This document shows, piece by piece, positions 2,575 through 26,355 of a stretch of DNA of 61,963 bases. The stretch comes from a virus. Lineage: Duplodnaviria > Caudoviricetes. The DNA is taken from IMG/VR virus record IMGVR_UViG_3300036790_000395, positions 1 to 61,963 of that record; one strand, 5' to 3'. Each line of letters opens with the position of its first letter. Within the stretch, counting starts at the first letter, position 1. The notes below the pieces were generated by a model. That model had not been told where the DNA came from and searched no databases. It saw only the letters and a program-made list of their open reading frames with translations. The translations under genes and the position numbers were made by a program.

Positions 2575-3057
2575 CTATTGCTGTTCCTCCGCGCGCTTCT
2601 CTTCCACCGGTAGTTCGCCTTTGCCGTTGCAGGTTTCGCAATCGACCGGATCGAAGCCTCTACCGCTGTTTTCCACGCTGCAGGTACAGTCGGCTTGCGG
2701 CTGCTCGCACGCGAAGCAGACGACGCCTTTACCTAAGCAGGAAGGGCAGGGACGGGCTTCTGCGTCCGGCAGCAGGAGCGGCTTATCCTCTTCCGGCGCT
2801 GGTTCCTCGTGCAGCAGGATGCCGATCAGCAGCCCGAAGCGGAAGTTCGCGAAGGCGGATAGCCGCATGGCGTTGCGTGTGGCAGTCAACGGATTGCCGG
2901 TGCGCGTCTGCGGGCTGTAGATGGCTTCGTGGATTAATCCGACGACGCGCTCCCGGATGGCTTCATTCGAGGAGGCGGCCTCCAGTTCTTCTATGTGCTC
3001 TTTGCCCCACGTTTGATACTTGACGGGCAAGGATTCAGCGATCTCTTGTAAGTTCAT
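2575..3057 (-). CDS. Protein with DnaJ-type zinc-finger repeats
   Basis: CPSCLGKG and CETCNGKG (CxxCxGxG twice). Confidence 0.65.
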   Translation of the reverse strand: MNLQEIAESLPVKYQTWGKEHIEELEAASSNEAIRERVVGLIHEAIYSPQTRTGNPLTATRNAMRLSAFANFRFGLLIGILLHEEPAPEEDKPLLLPDAEARPCPSCLGKGVVCFACEQPQADCTCSVENSGRGFDPVDCETCNGKGELPVEEKRAEEQQ

Positions 3058-4412
3058 GTGTCACGGTCCTCATCAGCTATTTCGAAGAAGCGATCACGCC
3101 TCCTTCGCTCCAACTCGACCGCCGTTTGGCCGGTCCAGTCGGCATCTCCGCAGGCGTAGGTAACGGCCTTCGCGAGCGGGGCGTTGGCAATGCCCAAAAT
3201 CGGGTAGCGCCCGATCCTGGCTTCGATATGAGCGGCGGCGTGATGGTTCGCGTCGTCACTCCAGAATTCGTCGAGCCGCTCCCACGGGTCGTAGTCGGAT
3301 GACTTATCGGTGTGCTGCAGCAGGCGGTTGATTAGCTGTTCGAGCGGACCCTTCTTGACCGTCTCGCGGATCTTGGTTTTAAGGCGTACTACGTCGATCA
3401 GCGAGAGGTCCGCGCGGGCGATATCGAGCGCTTCGACCAGCCAGCAGACGAGCGCTTCGATGGAATACGGGCGCACGACATCATCCCATGAGGTCATCGT
3501 GAACCCAAATAGTCGGTAGACCAAGGGTTTTAAGCCCTGCGGGAGATTACCGAGATGGAAGGCTTCTTGGAGGGTGTCGCGGAAACGCGGCGGATGAATG
3601 CCCATCTTCGCGAGCACATCGAGATCATGGACGGCAAAATGCAAGACCGCTTCGAAGTCCCATAAGTCGCCGAAGAAATGATTGAGCGTCTCTAGCGGAT
3701 CTTCATGTGTGGCGCGAATCAGACGAGCGCTGCCGGGCGCGATGCTGAACTGCACGCTCCAGGGCACGCCGCCGTGGTCTTCCGTGTCGATGGATAAGAG
3801 GGAGGTATCAGCGGAGCGCAGGTAGGCGCTTACTTCGTCTGGTGTGTCGGCAATTTTGTAGTCGGTCGGGTACGGCTTCTTGTCTCGTGTAGACTCTACA
3901 CGGCGTTTGTTCAGTTGCCCCCAATCTTCGAGCAACTGCGTCATCCAACGCGATTCGTGCAGGCCCAATGCCGGGTGATACATGGGCACGATCCAGCCCC
4001 GGTAATCGTACAGCTCGCCCCACTGCGGTATGCCGTGGTGCATGTCGAGCTTGATGGAGGGAACGAGGCGGCAGGCCGAGCCGCCCATCAGGATGATTAG
4101 AGAGGGATCTGTTCTTTGTATCTCTTTAGGGAGGTGATGAGCCGAGCAACAATCGATCTCGCGAGGCGTAGGCGTTCTATTCGCATCGGCCCAACACAGC
4201 ACAGTATTGGTAATGCGCACCTCAGAACGCGACAAGCCAGCCAGAGGAAGATAAGTTGCATTAAGTTCTTCACCGGTCTTGCCTATGAAGACTCGACCGT
4301 ACTTGTTTTCGTTACCGCCAGGGCGTTCGCCGATGATCAGGACGGGCGCGGGCGAGGGGCCATCTGGAGGCAGCGGGCGATAGCGGCGCGGGCAGACTTC
4401 ACACGGGATCAT
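3054..4412 (-). CDS. Family-4 uracil-DNA glycosylase-like domain fused to a 3'-5' exonuclease (N-terminal half of a split SPO1-like polymerase)
   Basis: UDG motifs CEVCP, IIGERPG, FIGKTG, TNTVLC, MYHPA; exonuclease motifs SIDTE, HFAVHDL, YACGDAD. Confidence 0.85.
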   Translation of the reverse strand: MIPCEVCPRRYRPLPPDGPSPAPVLIIGERPGGNENKYGRVFIGKTGEELNATYLPLAGLSRSEVRITNTVLCWADANRTPTPREIDCCSAHHLPKEIQRTDPSLIILMGGSACRLVPSIKLDMHHGIPQWGELYDYRGWIVPMYHPALGLHESRWMTQLLEDWGQLNKRRVESTRDKKPYPTDYKIADTPDEVSAYLRSADTSLLSIDTEDHGGVPWSVQFSIAPGSARLIRATHEDPLETLNHFFGDLWDFEAVLHFAVHDLDVLAKMGIHPPRFRDTLQEAFHLGNLPQGLKPLVYRLFGFTMTSWDDVVRPYSIEALVCWLVEALDIARADLSLIDVVRLKTKIRETVKKGPLEQLINRLLQHTDKSSDYDPWERLDEFWSDDANHHAAAHIEARIGRYPILGIANAPLAKAVTYACGDADWTGQTAVELERRRRDRFFEIADEDRDT

Positions 4413-19297: not shown

Positions 19298-19577
19298 GAG
19301 AATTACAGAGCTGGTGGACAGTGCGGATCGTGGGGCTGCGGCGGCCCCGTTCTAGTAGGGATACGTATGTGCGATCCATGCCGCACAGATCGGCCATTCC
19401 CTCTTGGGACAGACCTCGGATCGCGCGCTGTTGGCGTAGCGCTCGACCGAAGGCGATATCGATTTTAGAACGCACATACTTCTTCTCTAGTCGCTTCAGA
19501 CTGTACTCGTTGTACCGCATGATGGTCCGATCTCGTAAGAGCGCGAGATCAGGAAAGCAACGGACAAGAGTACACAT
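19245..19577 (-). CDS. XRE/Cro-C1 HTH regulator (true start probably near 19520)
   Basis: FGRALRQQR...LSQEGMADLCGMDRTYVSLLERGRRSPT. Confidence 0.85.
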   Translation of the reverse strand: MCTLVRCFPDLALLRDRTIMRYNEYSLKRLEKKYVRSKIDIAFGRALRQQRAIRGLSQEGMADLCGMDRTYVSLLERGRRSPTIRTVHQLCNSLKLRPSEFFAHVEKFLD

Positions 19578-19586
19578 CTTTGTAAC

Positions 19587-20546
19587 CTAAAGGCTGAAAT
19601 AATCGCCAGCGTTGGCCTGCTCGCCGCTGTTGGTATAGCGCTCGGTAGTAGAAACCGAGGAGTGCCCTAAGCTCTTCTGAATCACGTCGAGCGGCGCGCC
19701 GTGCTTGCGGGCCAACTTGGCGTAGCTTCTGCGCAGATCGTGCGGCGCGCAGGTCAGGCCCGCTGAGGCAGAATGCTGCAGGACAATGTTCCAGATGCCC
19801 GAGGCGGATAAACTGGTGCCTATTCTGCCATCCGCACGGATGGAGCGGACCACTCGTCCGTTTGGATCTAGCGCATTTTTCCAGTCCAACACAATGGACA
19901 TCACCCACGCCGGAATGGCGATAGTGCGCAATCGGTTGCCTTTGCCTAGTAGATCTACGATATAGGGGCGGCCTTCGCGTTGTGCGATCTGCGACCAGTC
20001 CAATCGGGATAGCTCGTCGCGCCGGATGCCCGTTCCAAGCAATAGTGCGAGCACTGCGCGGTCGCGGCGGCCACGCAAGATGGTTGGGTCCGGGGCGTTC
20101 AGTAGTGCCTGCGCCTGCTGTTGTGCCAGCCAATTGCCCGCGCGCGTACCGCGTAACTTGCGAGCCTTGATTGTGCCGATAGAGAAGGATGTGCCGTAGT
20201 CGATCCAGCCGTGCGCGGCGCTCTGTTGTGCCAACCGTTTGCAGGCTGAGAGCGCTTGGTTGTGCGAGCTGGTCTCCTGCACGGCTGCGACGTAGTGCTC
20301 GACCGACTCGCGAGATACTACGAATCCATTAGTGCCGAGGAACTGGAGATACCCGGTCAGGTGCCGCGTGTAGACTCTACACGAGTGCGGCGACAGGCCG
20401 GAGAGAGAGGCGGCCAACACTCGTTTCTCGGTATCCCCTAGCAGCACTCGTTCTGCTGACGCAGAACTAGCGTGCTGCCAACGATGGACCTCGGCCTGCG
20501 GCCTCGGTCCAAAGCTATCCGCGATTGCGCTTAGTGCTTCTTCCAT
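19587..20546 (-). CDS. Second tyrosine recombinase (XerC-like)
   Basis: RDRAVLALLLGTGIRRDE, GKGNR, PHDLRRSYA, LGHSSVSTTERY. Confidence 0.93.
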   Translation of the reverse strand: MEEALSAIADSFGPRPQAEVHRWQHASSASAERVLLGDTEKRVLAASLSGLSPHSCRVYTRHLTGYLQFLGTNGFVVSRESVEHYVAAVQETSSHNQALSACKRLAQQSAAHGWIDYGTSFSIGTIKARKLRGTRAGNWLAQQQAQALLNAPDPTILRGRRDRAVLALLLGTGIRRDELSRLDWSQIAQREGRPYIVDLLGKGNRLRTIAIPAWVMSIVLDWKNALDPNGRVVRSIRADGRIGTSLSASGIWNIVLQHSASAGLTCAPHDLRRSYAKLARKHGAPLDVIQKSLGHSSVSTTERYTNSGEQANAGDYFSL

Positions 20547-20659
20547 TGGTTGATGAACTCCTTCGTGTAGCCGATAACGACCGCTACCACCGTGATTCCG
20601 GCCCATAGTGCCAGCAGCGACAAAATGACGTAGACGACGATCAGGAAGATGCCGATCAT
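20531..20659 (-). CDS. 42-aa membrane peptide
   Basis: MIGIFLIVVYVILSLLALWAGITVVAVVIGYTKEFINQWKKH (manual translation). Confidence 0.5.
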   Translation of the reverse strand: MIGIFLIVVYVILSLLALWAGITVVAVVIGYTKEFINQWKKH

Positions 20660-20663
20660 AGTG

Positions 20664-20885
20664 CTATCCGTTCATCCCGGTGCGCTGCTTTAACGCGGCA
20701 ATATCCGCGTAGAACTGCTTCAGATCGCCTTGAATCACTTCGAGCGTATGCTCGATCTTGTCGAGCCGTTTCTCCATCAGCTCGAAGCGCTTGTTGTTGA
20801 GTATTAGTGCGGTGATCGCGACGCCAGCCGTGGAACCGGCAGTCGCGACAGACGTTATGATAGCCGTTAAAATGTTTGCATCCAT
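20664..20885 (-). CDS. Small membrane-anchored coiled-coil protein
   Basis: Hydrophobic N-terminus then heptads; GGAGG Shine-Dalgarno. Confidence 0.7.
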   Translation of the reverse strand: MDANILTAIITSVATAGSTAGVAITALILNNKRFELMEKRLDKIEHTLEVIQGDLKQFYADIAALKQRTGMNG

Positions 20886-20940
20886 AGTGCCTCCATTCGA
20901 TCCAATGACAACGCCAGTGGATCTAGGTGGAGCCGCTATG
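20883..20940 (-). promoter_or_regulatory. Structured RNA element occluding the Shine-Dalgarno and start, copy 1
   Basis: CATAGCGGCTCCA-CCTA-[GATCCA...TGGATC]-GAA-TGGAGGCACTATG. Confidence 0.55.
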
Positions 20941-20942
20941 GG

Positions 20943-21845
20943 CTATCGCGTATGCGCCGGGAAGCCGTAATCGAAGCCGAGCGCTTCAACGTCCCTCTTG
21001 AACTCCTCCATGAGCTTCGGTAGCCGTTCCTGCAGCTTGGCGCGCAGCTCGCGAGGTTCTACGCTGAGTTCTTCGTCGGTCGCGTCCGGCCATACGGCAG
21101 CGTGCCGCGCGTGGTCTAGCTCGCGTTTCTTGCCCTCGCTCCACGCAGTCGGGATCTCGACGAATTCAATCGTGCAGGTGTTAAGTGCCTCGGTGAATTC
21201 CTCGGCTTCGGTGCGGTCGTCGAATGGGCATTCGTGCCACTTGGTTGCCTCGTATCCCACAAGCGAGTACTTCGGTTCGAACTTGTAATTGTCGCCCGTG
21301 CGCTCTTCGTGGGCTATCGGGAATAGTTGGAACTCGCCGGTTCCGACGCGCGACTTGATGAAGTTGTAGAACTTAGTGCTCTTGATGCGGTGTGTAACGG
21401 GCACGCCGTTGAAGCGCACGCCGTAGCTGTAGCTGCTCGGCTCGCCTGCTCGGCGGCCCCATGCGTCTCTATCGGCTGCGGCGTATAGTGCGTTAGCCTC
21501 ATAGTGCATCGGTCCATCGGTAGACGTTAGGTGCCACTTCATGAACGGTCGCAGCTCGGGAAACACGAACTCGATTAGCTCGGTGATCTGCCCGCATGCG
21601 CCTCCTTCCTTAGTGCCATCGCTCACCGATCCCGTTATGCTCAGCGTGCAGTGCCCGTTCTTGCAGTCGTCATCAAATCGGATTAGGGCATTCACCCGGA
21701 TGCCGGTGCCCTTGTAAGCCCGGTATTGTGCCAATTCTCCCGTCAGATCCTTATTCGCCACGCCCCGCGAGAGGGTTAGATACTGGATCTTTCGCTCGCG
21801 GTCTTGGACGAACCGCTTCTCTGTTTTCTCTTCCATCGTCAACAT
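20943..21845 (-). CDS. Hypothetical phage protein
   Basis: Long ORF with GGAGG Shine-Dalgarno; DDDCKNGH, KWHLTSTDGPMHY motifs. Confidence 0.75.
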   Translation of the reverse strand: MLTMEEKTEKRFVQDRERKIQYLTLSRGVANKDLTGELAQYRAYKGTGIRVNALIRFDDDCKNGHCTLSITGSVSDGTKEGGACGQITELIEFVFPELRPFMKWHLTSTDGPMHYEANALYAAADRDAWGRRAGEPSSYSYGVRFNGVPVTHRIKSTKFYNFIKSRVGTGEFQLFPIAHEERTGDNYKFEPKYSLVGYEATKWHECPFDDRTEAEEFTEALNTCTIEFVEIPTAWSEGKKRELDHARHAAVWPDATDEELSVEPRELRAKLQERLPKLMEEFKRDVEALGFDYGFPAHTR

Positions 21846-21857
21846 AGTGCCTCCTGT

Positions 21858-21911
21858 TAGTGCCTCCATTCGGACTGCCGACCGTGCCGACCGTCCTAAG
21901 TGGAACCGCTA
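21858..21911 (-). promoter_or_regulatory. Structured RNA element, copy 2
   Basis: TAGCGGTTCCA-CTTA-[GGAC...GTCC]-GAA-TGGAGGCACTA; inner stem differs from copy 1 but still pairs. Confidence 0.55.
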
Positions 21912-21916
21912 TAGGT

Positions 21917-22363
21917 TTAGCGCGCTCCGCGAGACATCTTCATCTCATCGGCATAGTGCGTATAGGCTTCGTCCTCGGTGCGCTCTATCGGGTATGAATC
22001 GAACTCATGCGGCCCGAAGTAGCTGAGCAGATCCCAATAAACGAGAGCACGTTTCATCGGTTCAGTCGATAGTGCGTCTTCTCTGTAGCTGGCCTCATCC
22101 TGCCCGCACGATTGTGCGACTTCTGTCAACTTTTCAAACCACCATTCATGTTGCGCATTGTTCTCTAACAGAACGCGATACTCATTCAACTTGGTCGCGC
22201 CTTCTGTTTTGTGCCATTGTTCGTCTGATCCAGGTTCGAACCATGTCAGCTCTGGTCCATAAACTCCTGTTGTATCGATGTAGACGAAGCCTCCACCATG
22301 CGCGATAGGATCGACATCTCCAATGTGCCCTACGCATTTCCATTCCGGTTGTTGTGTACTCAT
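21917..22363 (-). CDS. Hypothetical phage protein
   Basis: IGDVDPIAHGGGFVY; GGGAG Shine-Dalgarno. Confidence 0.7.
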   Translation of the reverse strand: MSTQQPEWKCVGHIGDVDPIAHGGGFVYIDTTGVYGPELTWFEPGSDEQWHKTEGATKLNEYRVLLENNAQHEWWFEKLTEVAQSCGQDEASYREDALSTEPMKRALVYWDLLSYFGPHEFDSYPIERTEDEAYTHYADEMKMSRGAR

Positions 22364-22368
22364 AAAGT

Positions 22369-22424
22369 CTCCCGATCCGCATAGTGCGGATTTCGTCGTC
22401 TTTCAGCGGTACTCATCAGGGGAG
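22369..22424 (-). ncRNA. Type I hammerhead ribozyme (imperfect stem II)
   Basis: CTCCC-CTGATGA-GT...AC-GAAA-TCCGCA-CTA-TGCGGA-TC-GGGAG; AUC cleavage triplet. Confidence 0.8.
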
Positions 22425-22588
22425 TTTAGTCGAAGCTCGAACTCAAGCTTGTGGTATGCTTCGATAGTTTGCTTTTGCAGCGGGCTATTGGGAAACTGCC
22501 TTAGTGCCAAATTTTGAAGCTTTAGGATCTTCAACTGAGTTGAATCGACACTAGCCAAGATACTTGCTACAGATCTTTTGGTTCGCAT
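22403..22588 (-). CDS. Hypothetical protein
   Basis: TAATG coupling with the upstream gene; 3' end overlaps the ribozyme. Confidence 0.55.
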   Translation of the reverse strand: MRTKRSVASILASVDSTQLKILKLQNLALRQFPNSPLQKQTIEAYHKLEFELRLNSPDEYR

Positions 22589-22959
22589 TACTCTTCACTT
22601 CCATATTGCGCATCGATAACCGCGAAGTACTCATTCGATTCGAACTCTAGAATGCAGTCTGCTACACTCGGGAACTTGCGAACATCCATAGTGCGAGTTC
22701 GGGTAACCCGCTCGCCGTTCGATAGCGTCTTAGTGCGACTAAATGTTACTTCTGCATCCGCGATACTTGCATCTTGAAAGTCGCCATCATTCGTAATGTG
22801 CAACACCATATCGCGCAATGTAGGCTGACTGCCATCCGAATAGTGAGTGAACGGGTACTTTTGATTGGATGCCTTGAAGGACTTGGCGCAAGTGCAAGCA
22901 GGCATCCATATCTTACCGCCGATGATACCCGAGATAATAACTGATGTATTACTGCTCAT
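22588..22959 (-). CDS. Hypothetical protein
   Basis: GGAG Shine-Dalgarno supplied by ribozyme stem I. Confidence 0.65.
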   Translation of the reverse strand: MSSNTSVIISGIIGGKIWMPACTCAKSFKASNQKYPFTHYSDGSQPTLRDMVLHITNDGDFQDASIADAEVTFSRTKTLSNGERVTRTRTMDVRKFPSVADCILEFESNEYFAVIDAQYGSEE

Positions 22960-22964
22960 ATACT

Positions 22965-23016
22965 CTCCAGACGTGCGGATCGCACGTTTCGACTCTTGTA
23001 AGTCTCATCAGTGGAG
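22965..23016 (-). ncRNA. Type I hammerhead ribozyme
   Basis: CTCCA-CTGATGA-GACT(TACAAG)AGTC-GAAA-CGTGCG(ATC)CGCACG-TC-TGGAG; full consensus core, GUC site. Confidence 0.93.
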
Positions 23017-23276
23017 TTACTCGACTTCGATAAACTCAGGCGTGGGATAACCTTCCCCCGGTTCCATGCTGTAAAGCGATAACATCTCGGCATCCCCTTG
23101 AGCGAATGCCATCTGAGCAGGTGTGTAATCGTCGAAGTACTCGCGGTCGGTATCGCCCGGTTTTAGCGTCAAGAATCCTAGCAGTGCTCGCAACGTCTCA
23201 TTTGAATCCGTGGCATGCATCGGAGAACAGCAGAAGTCTTCACCGGAGAAACATGACGTAAACTATCGTGTTTCAT
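23017..23276 (-). pseudogene. Probable 5'-deleted or frameshifted phage gene
   Basis: The Shine-Dalgarno-led ATG at 23276 is out of frame with the protein-like frame FSGEDFCCSPMHATDS...FLTLKPGDTDREYF, which has an upstream in-frame TAG. Confidence 0.5.
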
Positions 23277-23281
23277 GATCT

Positions 23282-23302
23282 CTCCAGACTGCTGTTGTGG
23301 AG
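23282..23302 (-). other. Hammerhead relic (core deleted)
   Basis: CTCCA-CAACA-GCAGTC-TGGAG: same stem I and 3' flank as the 23661 ribozyme, but no catalytic core. Confidence 0.6.
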
Positions 23303-23650
23303 TTAAGCGTAATTGCCACGTTCTATAATGTCTCCCCAACATCCAACTTTGAAGCCGCGACCGTGAACGTATAGCAGGGTAACTTTGTAAGTATCACCCG
23401 AGTTAACATACTCGATAGCGGGCGATTTTTGGCCCTTACCTGCGTCGATATATTCATGCCCATGTAGGTTAAGGATTCCGCTGACCTCTTCCAATTTCTC
23501 GCAGCGTTTCAAGGCGCTATTCTCTAAGACCGCACGTATCAGTTTCGCTCTATCCCGCGCGGATTGATCAGACCTCGGATCGTTCAGACCTCCGGTATAG
23601 CGGGTAGTTAGTAACTCCAAGGTCTTAACACTCGGTAGATTTCGTCTCAT
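23303..23650 (-). CDS. Hypothetical phage protein
   Basis: YVNSGDTYKVTLL...CWGDIIER; start follows the ribozyme. Confidence 0.7.
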   Translation of the reverse strand: MRRNLPSVKTLELLTTRYTGGLNDPRSDQSARDRAKLIRAVLENSALKRCEKLEEVSGILNLHGHEYIDAGKGQKSPAIEYVNSGDTYKVTLLYVHGRGFKVGCWGDIIERGNYA

Positions 23651-23660
23651 CTCAATTTCT

Positions 23661-23710
23661 CTCCAGACTGCCCTATGGCAGTTTCGTCCCATCAGGACTC
23701 ATCAGTGGAG
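23661..23710 (-). ncRNA. Type I hammerhead ribozyme
   Basis: CTCCA-CTGATGA-GTCC(TGATG)GGAC-GAAA-CTGCC(ATAG)GGCAG-TC-TGGAG; full consensus core, GUC site. Confidence 0.93.
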
Positions 23711-23974
23711 TTAGTCGCCGTAGAAGTTCTCGCAAGATACTTCAATCTGTATCGCGCGTACCTCGGTGCGCTCAACGAGAGCTATCATTCGATCCCACGC
23801 GCGCGCCAGGGCATTCACCTGCCTATCAATCGCGCGATAAGCTGCCTTATCGTTATGATCAGTAACGTACTGCGGTAGGATCTCAGCGGCCATGCTCACT
23901 TCGTTATCCCTGCGTGAACGCAGATCCGCGACAATCGCCGCTAACTGCTCTGATACATGCTCGATCTTCACCAT
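23711..23974 (-). CDS. Hypothetical protein
   Basis: GAGGAG Shine-Dalgarno; its stop abuts the ribozyme. Confidence 0.65.
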   Translation of the reverse strand: MVKIEHVSEQLAAIVADLRSRRDNEVSMAAEILPQYVTDHNDKAAYRAIDRQVNALARAWDRMIALVERTEVRAIQIEVSCENFYGD

Positions 23975-24927
23975 GATTCATTCTCTCCTCAATCGCAGAT
24001 AATTACAATATCACCAGTACTAGACCTTAGCGTCTCGCCTAACTCGATGAAGTTCTTCTTACTCATCTGCTCTCCTCTGCGGCTGCCTATCGGCTGCCTA
24101 TTTCAGAGTATAGCTTGTGGCTGTGTGCGTCAACAAATACTTTCCAAGCAGGCTATAGGACTATCCTGAGAAATGGCGCGGTCTGTGTAGACTCTACACA
24201 GCCTGCTCCCGGATCTCTTCTCGGGCGGGTTGGTGCGGGCTATGGTATCGGGTAGCCGTGCTATACTCACGGGTAAGGGGCGCTGCATCCACACCCTATC
24301 CGTTGATCGTAACGCGCGTATGGGTAGCGCGTGCATAGCTCCTTAGGAAGCTAATCGCAAGCGCTGTACATACCTCTCGCCGATAGCGCCTGCTCTGTGC
24401 TCTGCTAAGTGCCCATAGCGCGTAAGCTAGCCTAACGCGCGCGCGCCATCACGTACTCACGATATTACTACTTATCGTCACTACGTTACCTGTTATCAAC
24501 AACTTACGTATCTACACCCCTGCTCCTCTAGGTATACGTCCGGCTGCGGCGCTGAGCAGCGCCTATACGCGCGCGCGAGAGCTGCGCGGAATTGTCCAGG
24601 GGTGACGGGCCTGCGCCAGTGCCTTGACTTTGCAGATCTACGATTTTTTGGTCGGCGCTTTTTTGCCGGTCGGATTTTTTGGGTGCTATGATTTTTCGAG
24701 GGCCGTACGGAAAGAACGGCGTGCAGTTAGCTCAATTCTAGATAAGGGCGACCGGCTCTCCCTCATATCCTCGGATCTGCGGCCCTGCTATCCTTATCAT
24801 CGGGCCGGTCCCGTTTGGGCGCTTATATCAGATCTGCTTCGGGAACTCCCGGCCCGCGCAATCAATGAGCCTGAATGTCCGCCGCCCGTAGGCGCGCGAC
24901 GTCAGGCGACCTATATAATGGCTTGGT

Positions 24928-25317
24928 ATGAACAAAATGGCGCTAACCAAATCAGACGGCTCGCGGGCACTGTCGCTGGTGCTCGAACCCGGCAACCTGC
25001 ATCGGCTGCAGCAGGGCGATCCGATCAAGCTGTGCGTGCATGAGCTGTTCCCGGACGGCATCCCGCGCAAGCTCGATCTGCTCATCTCCTTCAGCGAGAC
25101 GCCGATAGCGGATGCGCGCGAATTGGCGAAACACGCGGAAGTCGCGTTTGACGACCGCTCGCGTGTGACCAAGAAGCCGCACTGCCCCGAATGCCGCTCG
25201 ACTATCGAGCAATTGGGCGTGTGGAAGAATGAGTCGCCGGTCGCGCTCACCTTCTGCCCTTCCTGCGGCTGCGTCTTTGGCGCGCTTGACTCTGTTGCGT
25301 TCAAGCAGGCGGAATGA
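24928..25317 (+). CDS. Hypothetical protein with C-terminal zinc ribbon
   Basis: CPEC...CPSC. Confidence 0.6.
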   Translation: MNKMALTKSDGSRALSLVLEPGNLHRLQQGDPIKLCVHELFPDGIPRKLDLLISFSETPIADARELAKHAEVAFDDRSRVTKKPHCPECRSTIEQLGVWKNESPVALTFCPSCGCVFGALDSVAFKQAE

Positions 25318-25586
25318 GTAAAGATCAATCAGATCCGCGCCGTACCGATATGCTACAAGACGATATCCCCGAGCTGCGCGGCAAGTCGCCCGACGAACTG
25401 CGCTTCTGGCGGCTCATCGAGTCGCGCGAGCCGGACGGCGACTACAACGAGAACATCGCGCTCGCCTGCGGGCACCTGATATTTACTGTCGGCCAGCCGC
25501 CCGAGCTGCAGTATATGTTCTGCGCTCAGTGTTTACACGATTGGCTCGAAGCCGAGCGCAAGGCCCGTGTAGAGTCTACATCATGA
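25314..25586 (+). CDS. Hypothetical protein
   Basis: LACGH...CAQC; ATGA overlaps. Confidence 0.6.
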   Translation: MSKDQSDPRRTDMLQDDIPELRGKSPDELRFWRLIESREPDGDYNENIALACGHLIFTVGQPPELQYMFCAQCLHDWLEAERKARVESTS

Positions 25587-25972
25587 TGGTTGATTCCGAG
25601 TGGTTGGTTGAGCGTATCGATGCTTGGCTGTCCTACCTCGACAAGCTACCCCATCGCACGCCAGCGAACGACGCCGATAAGCAGTTGTATGCGGCTGGCT
25701 TAATAGACATGGCTGAGCATATCCGAGAGGGCATTATGCAGGAAGGCGACTGGCAGGGGCTACGGGAGTTCTTGGGCGACGCCGCGCCAGCCAGCCTGCC
25801 CAAGCACGGTTGGGGCGCTGTAGACTCTACACCAGACATCCCTAACATCGTCTGCCCGCAATGCGGCGCGCGCTCCTATCATCCGCAGGATGTTAGCGAG
25901 CGCTACTGCGGCCACTGCCATCAGTTCCACGCCGAGATGCGTGTAGGCTCTACACCAAAGGAATCTCTATGA
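25583..25972 (+). CDS. Hypothetical protein with zinc ribbon
   Basis: CPQCGARSYHPQDVSERYCGHCHQF. Confidence 0.6.
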   Translation: MMVDSEWLVERIDAWLSYLDKLPHRTPANDADKQLYAAGLIDMAEHIREGIMQEGDWQGLREFLGDAAPASLPKHGWGAVDSTPDIPNIVCPQCGARSYHPQDVSERYCGHCHQFHAEMRVGSTPKESL

Positions 25973-26355
25973 AGAACATAGCCCCCGGCGAGCGCTACAC
26001 CGAATGGGTCAGCGGCGTGAATCAGCGCGGCGAGCCATTCATTCAACTTGCGCAGATCCGTGATGGCAAGCGCATCCTGCTCGGCCAGATGACGCCGAAC
26101 GAGGCGCGCTCGCTCGCGATGCAAGGCATCGAAGCGGCGGAAGCTGCCGAGACGGACGCCTATATGTGGAAGTTCTTCAAGACTCGCATGGAGCTGCAGG
26201 ACGCGCAGGTCGCCGCGTTTATCGCCGACTTCCGCGACTTCCGCGCGCAGTTCGGCACCTCCGAGCCGACCTCGCCCGAGCACTGGAACGCCGTCATGGA
26301 TGAGATCGCCCGCGCCCGCACGGGTAAGTCCTTCGACCCGACGAAGAAGCAATGA
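25969..26355 (+). CDS. Hypothetical protein
   Basis: Overlap-coupled ORF; QMTPNEARSLA...AAEAAETDA. Confidence 0.65.
   Translation: MKNIAPGERYTEWVSGVNQRGEPFIQLAQIRDGKRILLGQMTPNEARSLAMQGIEAAEAAETDAYMWKFFKTRMELQDAQVAAFIADFRDFRAQFGTSEPTSPEHWNAVMDEIARARTGKSFDPTKKQ

Follow-up and report, generated by a model that had tools for sequence, protein, structure and literature searches.

Type I hammerhead ribozymes at the gene junctions of a phage operon carry the Shine-Dalgarno sequence of the next gene in stem I

Introduction

Does the translation of a phage gene depend on the self-cleavage of a ribozyme that lies directly in front of it? The question is raised by the IMG/VR virus record IMGVR_UViG_3300036790_000395, analyzed here over its whole length of 61,963 bases (completeness rating 100%; hereafter the window), in which three type I hammerhead ribozymes, HH1, HH2 and HH3, stand at gene junctions of one minus-strand operon and the Shine-Dalgarno (SD) sequence of each following gene forms one strand of stem I. 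Most phage hammerheads give no clue to their role beyond the fact that they cut between genes. A ribosome-binding site (RBS) placed inside the ribozyme leads to a sharp prediction, namely that translation depends on the cut.

Perreault et al (2011; PMC3088659) describe bacterial hammerheads in the hundreds, a good many of them close to prophage integrases; in their main text, clusters flank single genes or short blocks of varying identity, and long phage transcripts are proposed to be processed into mRNAs of the length of a gene. Three tandem arrangements were active in vitro, and the triple arrangement of A. tumefaciens was also active in E. coli. Two later reviews call the function of bacterial and phage hammerheads open in their main texts (PMC6155905, PMC6765202).

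Results

Three type I hammerheads on the minus strand

HH1 (23710-23661, minus strand) is a canonical type I hammerhead with three stems of 5 bp each. Stem I pairs 23710-23706 with 23665-23661, and between these strands lie CUGAUGA (23705-23699), the stem II hairpin (23698-23686), GAAA (23685-23682) and the stem III hairpin (23681-23668). The predicted cut follows GUC, between 23666 and 23665, and a GGAG stands at 23664-23661. HH2 (23016-22965, minus strand), also canonical, has stems I, II and III of 5, 5 and 6 bp, a GUC with the cut predicted between 22970 and 22969, and its GGAG at 22968-22965. HH3 (22424-22369, minus strand) has a weak, bulged stem II, the stems counting 5, 2 and 6 contiguous bp, and its cut is predicted after AUC, between 22374 and 22373, with GGAG at 22372-22369. 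The order of parts is that of type I in all three, i.e. stem I 5' strand, CUGAUGA, stem II hairpin, GAAA, stem III hairpin, U-H and stem I 3' strand. Stem II is closed by a G...C pair and stem III by an A...U pair in each of them, and the three cleavage sites conform to N-U-H. A three-helix arrangement with stem I open is formed by HH1 and HH2, and weakly by HH3.

A descriptor written for this work, which demands a minimum of 4, 2 and 4 pairs in the stems besides the core words, and any base but G after a U, matched both strands of the window exactly three times, at HH1, HH2 and HH3, among 16 CTGATGA words, and gave no match in 200 mononucleotide shuffles of the window. We also built a covariance model, R1, on 13 type I hammerheads of equal length, all of them taken from IMG/VR phages other than that of the window. 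As the training sequences of R1 were selected by a pairing descriptor, its own covariation figures are partly circular. With filters off, R1 scored HH1 at 47.1 bits (E 2e-14), HH2 at 37.6 bits (E 6.5e-11) and HH3 at 17.5 bits (E 0.0017), on a background of 21 other matches in the window at E ≤ 10, all at or below 11.3 bits (best E 0.34). HH1 and HH2 are thus as good as phage hammerheads get, and HH3 is a real but weak match.

The weakness of HH3 lies in stem II, where only two pairs are contiguous and an extension needs two bulges and one mismatch. The same stem II region is identical at 17 of 18 positions to that of a well-scoring hammerhead of an unrelated phage (L004:567-630, 30.6 bits), which argues for a variant rather than debris. 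The minimum-free-energy fold of HH2 is a three-way junction. A tertiary contact of loop II with stem I or its flanks is needed for fast cleavage; read by eye, the window hammerheads show no obvious pseudoknot that would join loop II to the flanks, no computed search for one having been made.

Overall, these data confirm, at the level of sequence, that the three elements are real type I hammerheads. The initial annotation had placed three such elements on the minus strand at these coordinates, with CUGAUGA/GAAA cores and paired stems; positions and cores hold for all three, and the pairing holds for HH1 and HH2 but is reduced to two contiguous pairs in stem II of HH3.

Each stem I contains the Shine-Dalgarno sequence of the next gene

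The hammerheads keep a strict register with the surrounding reading frames. The TAA stop codons of the 87-aa and 67-aa frames (23713-23711 and 23019-23017) end one base before HH1 and HH2, respectively, and the TGA of the 61-aa frame (22405-22403) falls within HH3, so that two elements begin right after the upstream stop and the third overlaps the end of the upstream gene, as had been annotated. On the other side, the distance from the cut to the next ATG is 15 nt for HH1 (ATG at 23650) and 10 nt for both HH2 (22959) and HH3 (22363). Since the N-termini of all three encoded proteins align with the N-termini of their homologues, we take these ATGs as the true starts.

Stem I is in each case a 5-bp helix between an anti-SD strand (CUCCA or CUCCC) and a downstream SD strand (UGGAG or GGGAG), the two strands of HH1 being identical to those of HH2. 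The GGAG of the 3' strand lies 5-10 nt from each ATG, serving the 115-aa gene behind HH1, the 123-aa gene behind HH2 and the 148-aa gene behind HH3, and is the sole SD-like sequence between cut and ATG, with no other purine-rich stretch at any of the three junctions. The initial annotation had identified this GGAG as the SD of the next gene, and spacing and start codons bear it out. Since no other SD is available and the predicted cut falls one base before the GGAG, the mRNA left by cleavage at GUC or AUC would have its 5' end one base ahead of its RBS, again as had been proposed. Note that the anti-SD strand lies ~45 nt upstream of the SD, and is hence transcribed first.

Predicted consequences of cleavage for translation

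From this layout a sequence of events can be proposed. As the anti-SD strand is made ~45 nt earlier, each hammerhead would fold during transcription of the operon before a ribosome reaches the SD, and would then cut after GUC or AUC. The short 5-bp stem I would dissociate quickly, so that, by the known chemistry of hammerheads, the downstream mRNA should start with a 5'-OH one base before the freed RBS, and the upstream mRNA should carry the folded ribozyme at its 3' end, terminated by a 2',3'-cyclic phosphate. The operon would be split into units of 696 nt and 596 nt plus two ends, and with fast dissociation of the helix the translation of each downstream gene would follow its own cut, insulated from the preceding gene.

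We lean, if only slightly, toward this reading, in which self-cleaving type I hammerheads in the gene junctions of a leftward accessory operon would split its RNA and unmask each downstream SD. In a thermodynamic model, the mean probability that the GGAG is unpaired rises from 0.44 in the uncleaved RNA to 0.95 in the 3' product for HH1, and from 0.66 to 0.82 for HH3. That cleavage frees an occluded RBS, as the initial annotation had proposed, is therefore predicted for HH1 and HH3 but not for HH2, and we consider it plausible. The companion claim that the ribozymes punctuate the operon and split its transcript agrees with the placement of all three at gene junctions, from which such a splitting would be expected; the idea is already present in the main text of PMC3088659.

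Shine-Dalgarno sequences in stem I are rare and recur in unrelated phages

To place the window hammerheads among those of other phages, we used an IMG/VR pattern scan that left stem I neutral and prescribed, besides the core, just the initial pair of stem II and of stem III. It returned at least 120 stretches, and the matches listed gave, after application of the descriptor and removal of duplicates, a reference sample of 91 type I hammerheads, to which the following counts refer. Stem I begins 0-4 nt after an upstream stop codon in 30 of the 91, so that starting at the stop codon is the norm, and a TAA directly precedes it in 17/90. A-rich flanks are common, with AA before stem I in 41/90 and after it in 51/90. 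A start codon opening a frame of at least 40 codons lies within 80 nt of the cut in 76/91, at a median distance of 27.5 nt. Usually 18-45 nt separate cut and start, and the SD falls outside stem I, compared with a spacing of 10-15 nt in the window; stem I is mostly 6 bp long and A/U-rich, where the window copies are G/C-rich. An SD-like word was found downstream of stem I in 52/91, none was recognized in 21, no start was found in 15, and the SD was flagged inside stem I in three; two of these three are artefacts in which the "start" lies inside the stem, which leaves a single case, L060. The SD-bearing stem I is a rare variant, about 1 in 91 among the matches listed.

Further cases were sought in IMG/VR with a targeted pattern for hammerheads of the form CTCCN...NGGAG, which retrieved 17 loci. 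Twelve of them hold a hammerhead supported by R1 (L137 being counted through its identity to L134), and the other five are chance matches. The twelve represent nine distinct sequences (L003, L004, L005, L127, L128, L129, L131 (= L138), L134 (= L137) and L139), to which L060 adds another case of an SD in stem I. In seven of the nine, an ATG lies 5-10 nt past the GGAG, where ~9% would be expected for a six-position window; in L139 the distance is 3 nt and in L004 it is 36 nt. In L005, three hammerheads share a TAA-CTCCA flank, and two of these combine a UGGAG 3' strand with a start codon behind it. The fetched stretches show no protein similarity to the window, only the ribozymes matching. When contigs of bacterial genomes were scanned with the same CTCCN...NGGAG pattern, at least 120 rows were returned, and among the matches listed none passed the descriptors at the pattern site; one (L143) has a relaxed-descriptor match off the pattern site, without a GGAG stem I. 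These bacterial rows (L140 onward) are taken as chance matches, because ~150 are expected by our own estimate.

In the converse direction, alignments of the 148-aa and 115-aa protein families retrieved 42 and 9 loci, respectively. The descriptor found no hammerhead in the 42 loci of the 148-aa relatives, and R1 found none at E ≤ 1 in 48 of the 51 loci of both families, the three omitted being L276 (identical to L262) and L278 and L293 (in which the match lies at the first bases of the contig, with no sequence upstream of it). The module made of stop codon, anti-SD, ribozyme and SD is not tied to particular genes.

Several features of these other hammerheads are recorded here in their own right. 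L128, L131/L138 and L134/L137 have a GGGAG 3' strand, a very short stem II and an ATG 7-9 nt past the SD, and in the same three the loop of stem II, GCGGGC, is complementary to a GCCCGC just 5' of stem I, likely a pseudoknot type. L004, a stretch of 14.4 kb from a 72-kb IMG/VR record, holds six type I hammerheads on one strand within 11 kb, scoring 23-51 bits. In L007, L036, L084, L041, L045, L120 and others, a copy of the stem I 5' strand occurs 3-8 nt past the 3' strand, so that the cleaved downstream RNA could fold a 5'-terminal hairpin; such a helix of at least 5 bp is possible in 20/88 of the matches listed vs 7/88 in a control shifted by 40 nt, and is not found in the window. Copies within one phage (L007, L057, L074, L078, L022, L032) often have stem I in common and differ in stems II and III.

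Weighing the unmasking of ribosome-binding sites

The same survey bears on another explanation, in which the hammerheads cut the operon RNA to set the stability of each cistron, and the SD overlap reflects a packing of signals that leaves translation unaffected. With the SD of most phage type I hammerheads outside stem I, at the distances given above, a general role of these ribozymes needs no SD occlusion. This explanation also fits the 5-bp helix, which leaves the GGAG 44-66% unpaired in the thermodynamic model, and HH2, where cleavage brings no predicted gain. Against it, nine more distinct hammerheads from unrelated contexts show the overlap, seven of them with an SD-like spacing, the anti-SD strand is always transcribed first, and engineered versions of the layout are described as gating translation in the available text of PMC7445771. 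We regard this explanation as possible, and on the whole unlikely.

The reading that cleavage unmasks each SD has in turn to face several observations that weigh against it. An Infernal search with Rfam models, the check that the initial annotation had proposed for the ribozymes, returned no family at gathering score in the window, all three hammerheads staying below it. On RF00163 (cut-off 34 bits), HH1 reached 23.7 bits and HH2 21.2 bits, with no match for HH3, and HH2 scored 25.1 bits on RF00008 and 26.6 bits on RF03152 (cut-off 56.3), its best Rfam model. Sub-threshold RF00163 matches occurred also in 13 of 14 control genomes, so that Rfam alone proves nothing for HH1-HH3 and these values count for little. 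The fold energies of the three elements do not differ significantly from those of shuffled sequences (z -1.3 to -1.6), the minimum-energy fold of HH1 is an alternative structure, and HH3 may be slow or inactive owing to its poor stem II. The predicted accessibility of the HH2 SD is unchanged by cleavage (0.46 before, 0.47 after). With so weak a stem I, the uncleaved SDs are predicted to be about half open, and occlusion may be leaky. From the reference sample, where the SD lies downstream of stem I in 52 hammerheads and inside it in one, SD occlusion is not the general purpose of phage hammerheads. Finally, a promoter and terminator scan gave nothing above shuffled sequence, and the promoter of the operon was not recovered by it.

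A fourth junction without a catalytic core

A fourth site, J4 (23302-23282, minus strand), lies in the same operon, between the 115-aa gene and a decayed gene. Its 5' flank of 9 bases, TAA included, and its 3' flank of 14 bases, with GTC and the SD, are identical to those of HH1, but it lacks the core and stem II together with most of stem III. An anti-SD/SD hairpin of 5 bp is left, immediately in front of the ATG at 23276, and the thermodynamic model gives its GGAG a probability of 0.00 of being unpaired. J4, which is absent from the initial annotation, is the remnant of a hammerhead whose catalytic core has been deleted.

The gene behind J4 (23276-23017, minus strand) is the operon's only damaged gene, frameshifted and truncated, and is split into a 32-aa frame (23276-23178) and the overlapping 67-aa frame (23220-23017) that ends at HH2. 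A contig of another run covers 23141-23340 and is identical in the frameshift region, so that the frameshift is probably not an assembly slip of the window record. The damaged J4 provides, within one operon, a built-in comparison for the ribozyme-bearing junctions, and as such counts in favor of an unmasking of SDs by cleavage.

J4 is also a point in favor of seeing the hammerheads as relics or selfish passengers, which arrived with horizontally acquired low-GC cassettes and are neutral or decaying, with no benefit to the phage. The GC content of the 22-24 kb block is 49% vs ~58% in its surroundings, J4 has lost its core and the gene behind it is broken, HH3 is weak, and no hammerhead was found at loci of genes related to the 115-aa and 148-aa genes (0/48 loci by R1, 0/42 by descriptor). 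Yet cores and stems of HH1 and HH2 are perfect, with scores on a par with the best phage hammerheads, all three elements hold the exact register with stop codon, SD and ATG, and the stem II region of HH3 recurs, as described above, in a good hammerhead elsewhere. That the elements are mere debris or passengers is therefore improbable in our view.

RNA joining and cassette swapping

The initial annotation had further suggested that the cleaved pieces could circularize and that the ribozymes may act as homology joints for the swapping of gene cassettes. The pieces between cuts would then re-pair their ends into circles or new combinations, or the flanks would serve as recombination joints. HH1 and HH2 have identical stem I strands, which the J4 remnant shares too, so that the 696-nt piece could rebuild a complete hammerhead across its own ends. 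In other phages, among the matches listed, the inner 5 nt of stem I are identical in 14 of 46 within-locus pairs vs 55 of 3959 between-locus pairs. Against RNA joining, spliced or circular products were proposed, sought and not detected by Perreault et al (main text of PMC3088659), and the shared stem I is explained here by its being the SD. Against recombination, the shared DNA flanks measure only 9-16 nt, and no hammerhead is present at 48 loci encoding relatives of two cassette genes.

Contigs of four other runs, which agree with the window at 100% and span all three hammerheads as well as the frameshift region, likewise show no variant junction and no cassette joints. As they represent the same phage at low depth, this result says little. 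We consider joining and shuffling highly improbable as explanations of the locus, and the proposal of cassette swapping finds no support in these data.

Phage and operon context

The window phage is temperate, podovirus-like and from soil. Its plus strand encodes a P22-like portal and an SU10-type adaptor, and its minus strand a protein with uracil-DNA glycosylase (UDG) and exonuclease domains, a helicase and a tyrosine integrase. The UDG/exonuclease protein is a single polypeptide (3054-4412, minus strand) joining a uracil-DNA glycosylase domain and a DNA polymerase A-type 3'-5' exonuclease domain. The tyrosine integrase (19587-20606, minus strand; Pfam match PF00589) lies downstream of the ribozymes on the same strand. 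Short contigs from four other soil-metagenome runs match the region 19500-26000 without differences over the listed pieces, so that the same phage population is present in several samples.

The hammerheads are contained in a run of small minus-strand genes from ~24.1 to 20.6 kb, over which no terminator-like site was found. The 87-aa gene (23974-23711, minus strand), whose TAA stop abuts HH1, is without a function assigned by family searches. It is followed on the same strand by the 115-aa gene (23650-23303) between HH1 and J4, which has 11 hypothetical homologues, by the decayed gene, and by the 123-aa gene (22959-22588) after HH2, with 14 hypothetical homologues. The start of the 61-aa frame (22588-22403) overlaps the preceding stop by one base, and the frame extends 22 nt into HH3. 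Behind HH3 come the 148-aa gene (22363-21917), with 44 hypothetical homologues, the 308-aa gene (21869-20943) and the 73-aa gene (20885-20664), all on the minus strand, the last two placed by gene order.

Pfam and PHROG searches gave no family for any cassette gene, blastn of 21800-24400 against a phage collection gave no match, and locus searches with single proteins (the 148-aa gene, the 123-aa gene and the integrase) found no relatives of the window phage. The 148-aa family has many invariant residues, and its structure model reaches a pLDDT of 94.4; the model has no informative match in the PDB (Foldseek E ≥ 0.14; best VIA Z 4.4) and matches only uncharacterized phage proteins in BFVD. ESM Atlas held no usable match for the 123-aa protein. 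The 67-aa frame matches only the C-terminal ~60 residues of longer proteins in an uncharacterized family.

Two side observations concern this region. At E ≤ 0.001, the family of the 67-aa frame numbers 953 representatives, in which the domain mostly makes up the last ~60 residues of proteins of 110-160 aa; 2 of 10 scanned have a DUF192 fusion, and the domain itself has no Pfam model. Upstream of the operon (24065-24133, minus strand), a candidate promoter, TTGACG / 15 nt / TATACT, can be read by eye near 24133-24107 and is absent from the scan output; after it come a tandem direct repeat of 10-11 nt and a 25-codon frame with a GAGGAGAG Shine-Dalgarno.

Discussion

The interpretation given in the initial annotation is, as a whole, partly supported. 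Extended from the window to the roughly ten hammerheads of unrelated phages that share the layout, the proposal becomes that translation is naturally gated by a ribozyme, self-cleavage being an obligatory unmasking step within a portable module that moves independently of the genes it serves. This wider proposal we put forward tentatively, as one that we doubt a little more than we believe. If true, the unit of stop codon, anti-SD, ribozyme and SD would be a portable module of intercistronic punctuation.

Part of the picture is not new. The punctuation of operons by hammerheads, transcript processing and the idea of circular RNAs were already published in 2011 (main text of PMC3088659). The word "Shine" is absent from the main texts of PMC3088659, PMC6155905 and PMC6765202, and the supplementary alignments of PMC3088659 may contain such cases; a literature search over titles and abstracts, incomplete in coverage and with supplements outside it, returned no natural hammerhead with an SD in stem I. 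Judged from sequence, the placement of the SD in stem I is a real, rare detail that recurs in unrelated phages and is undescribed as far as this search reached. Self-cleavage has been reported, in a paper of 2026, to allow translation to start in eukaryotic RNA viruses (PMC13725137); the mechanism, in the available text of that paper, differs from the one proposed for the window.

Like the clusters of Perreault et al (2011; PMC3088659), for which transcript processing has been proposed, the window hammerheads flank single genes or short blocks near an integrase: three elements on one strand span 1.35 kb of a complete virus record, with the integrase 1.8 kb downstream. Unlike in the main text of that study, which makes no mention of the SD, the SD is here the 3' strand of stem I, and the cut is predicted one base before it. 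With typical intercistronic type I hammerheads of phages they share the cores, short stems II and III, A-rich flanks, a start near the stop codon and a stem I that is often common to several copies. They differ from them by the 10-15 nt from cut to start and by the G/C-rich SD stem, in which only L060 resembles them (1 of the 91 matches listed). The type I form with a 5-bp stem I is also that of RAGATH-1 (RF03152); in contrast to that family, the window scores of 26.6 and 24.6 bits stay far from its cut-off of 56.3, and the upstream hairpin of RF03152 is unmatched or poorly aligned in the window.

A further parallel is an engineered one. Designed type I hammerheads whose extended stem I contains the SD control bacterial translation through cleavage (available text of PMC7445771), and as in these RBS switches a type I hammerhead stands here before a gene with the SD paired in stem I. 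In the engineered switches, as described there, cleavage makes the RBS accessible, which in the window is predicted for HH1 and HH3 but not for HH2, and they carry a ligand-binding aptamer on stem III, an extended stem I and a position in the 5' leader. The window elements, by contrast, are natural, have no aptamer and a stem I of only 5 bp, and lie between cistrons. A layout invented by synthetic biologists thus exists in nature, and ribozyme-gated translation, if true, would be a function of bacterial hammerheads that can, for the first time, be tested directly, and would stand as the natural counterpart of the engineered RBS switches.

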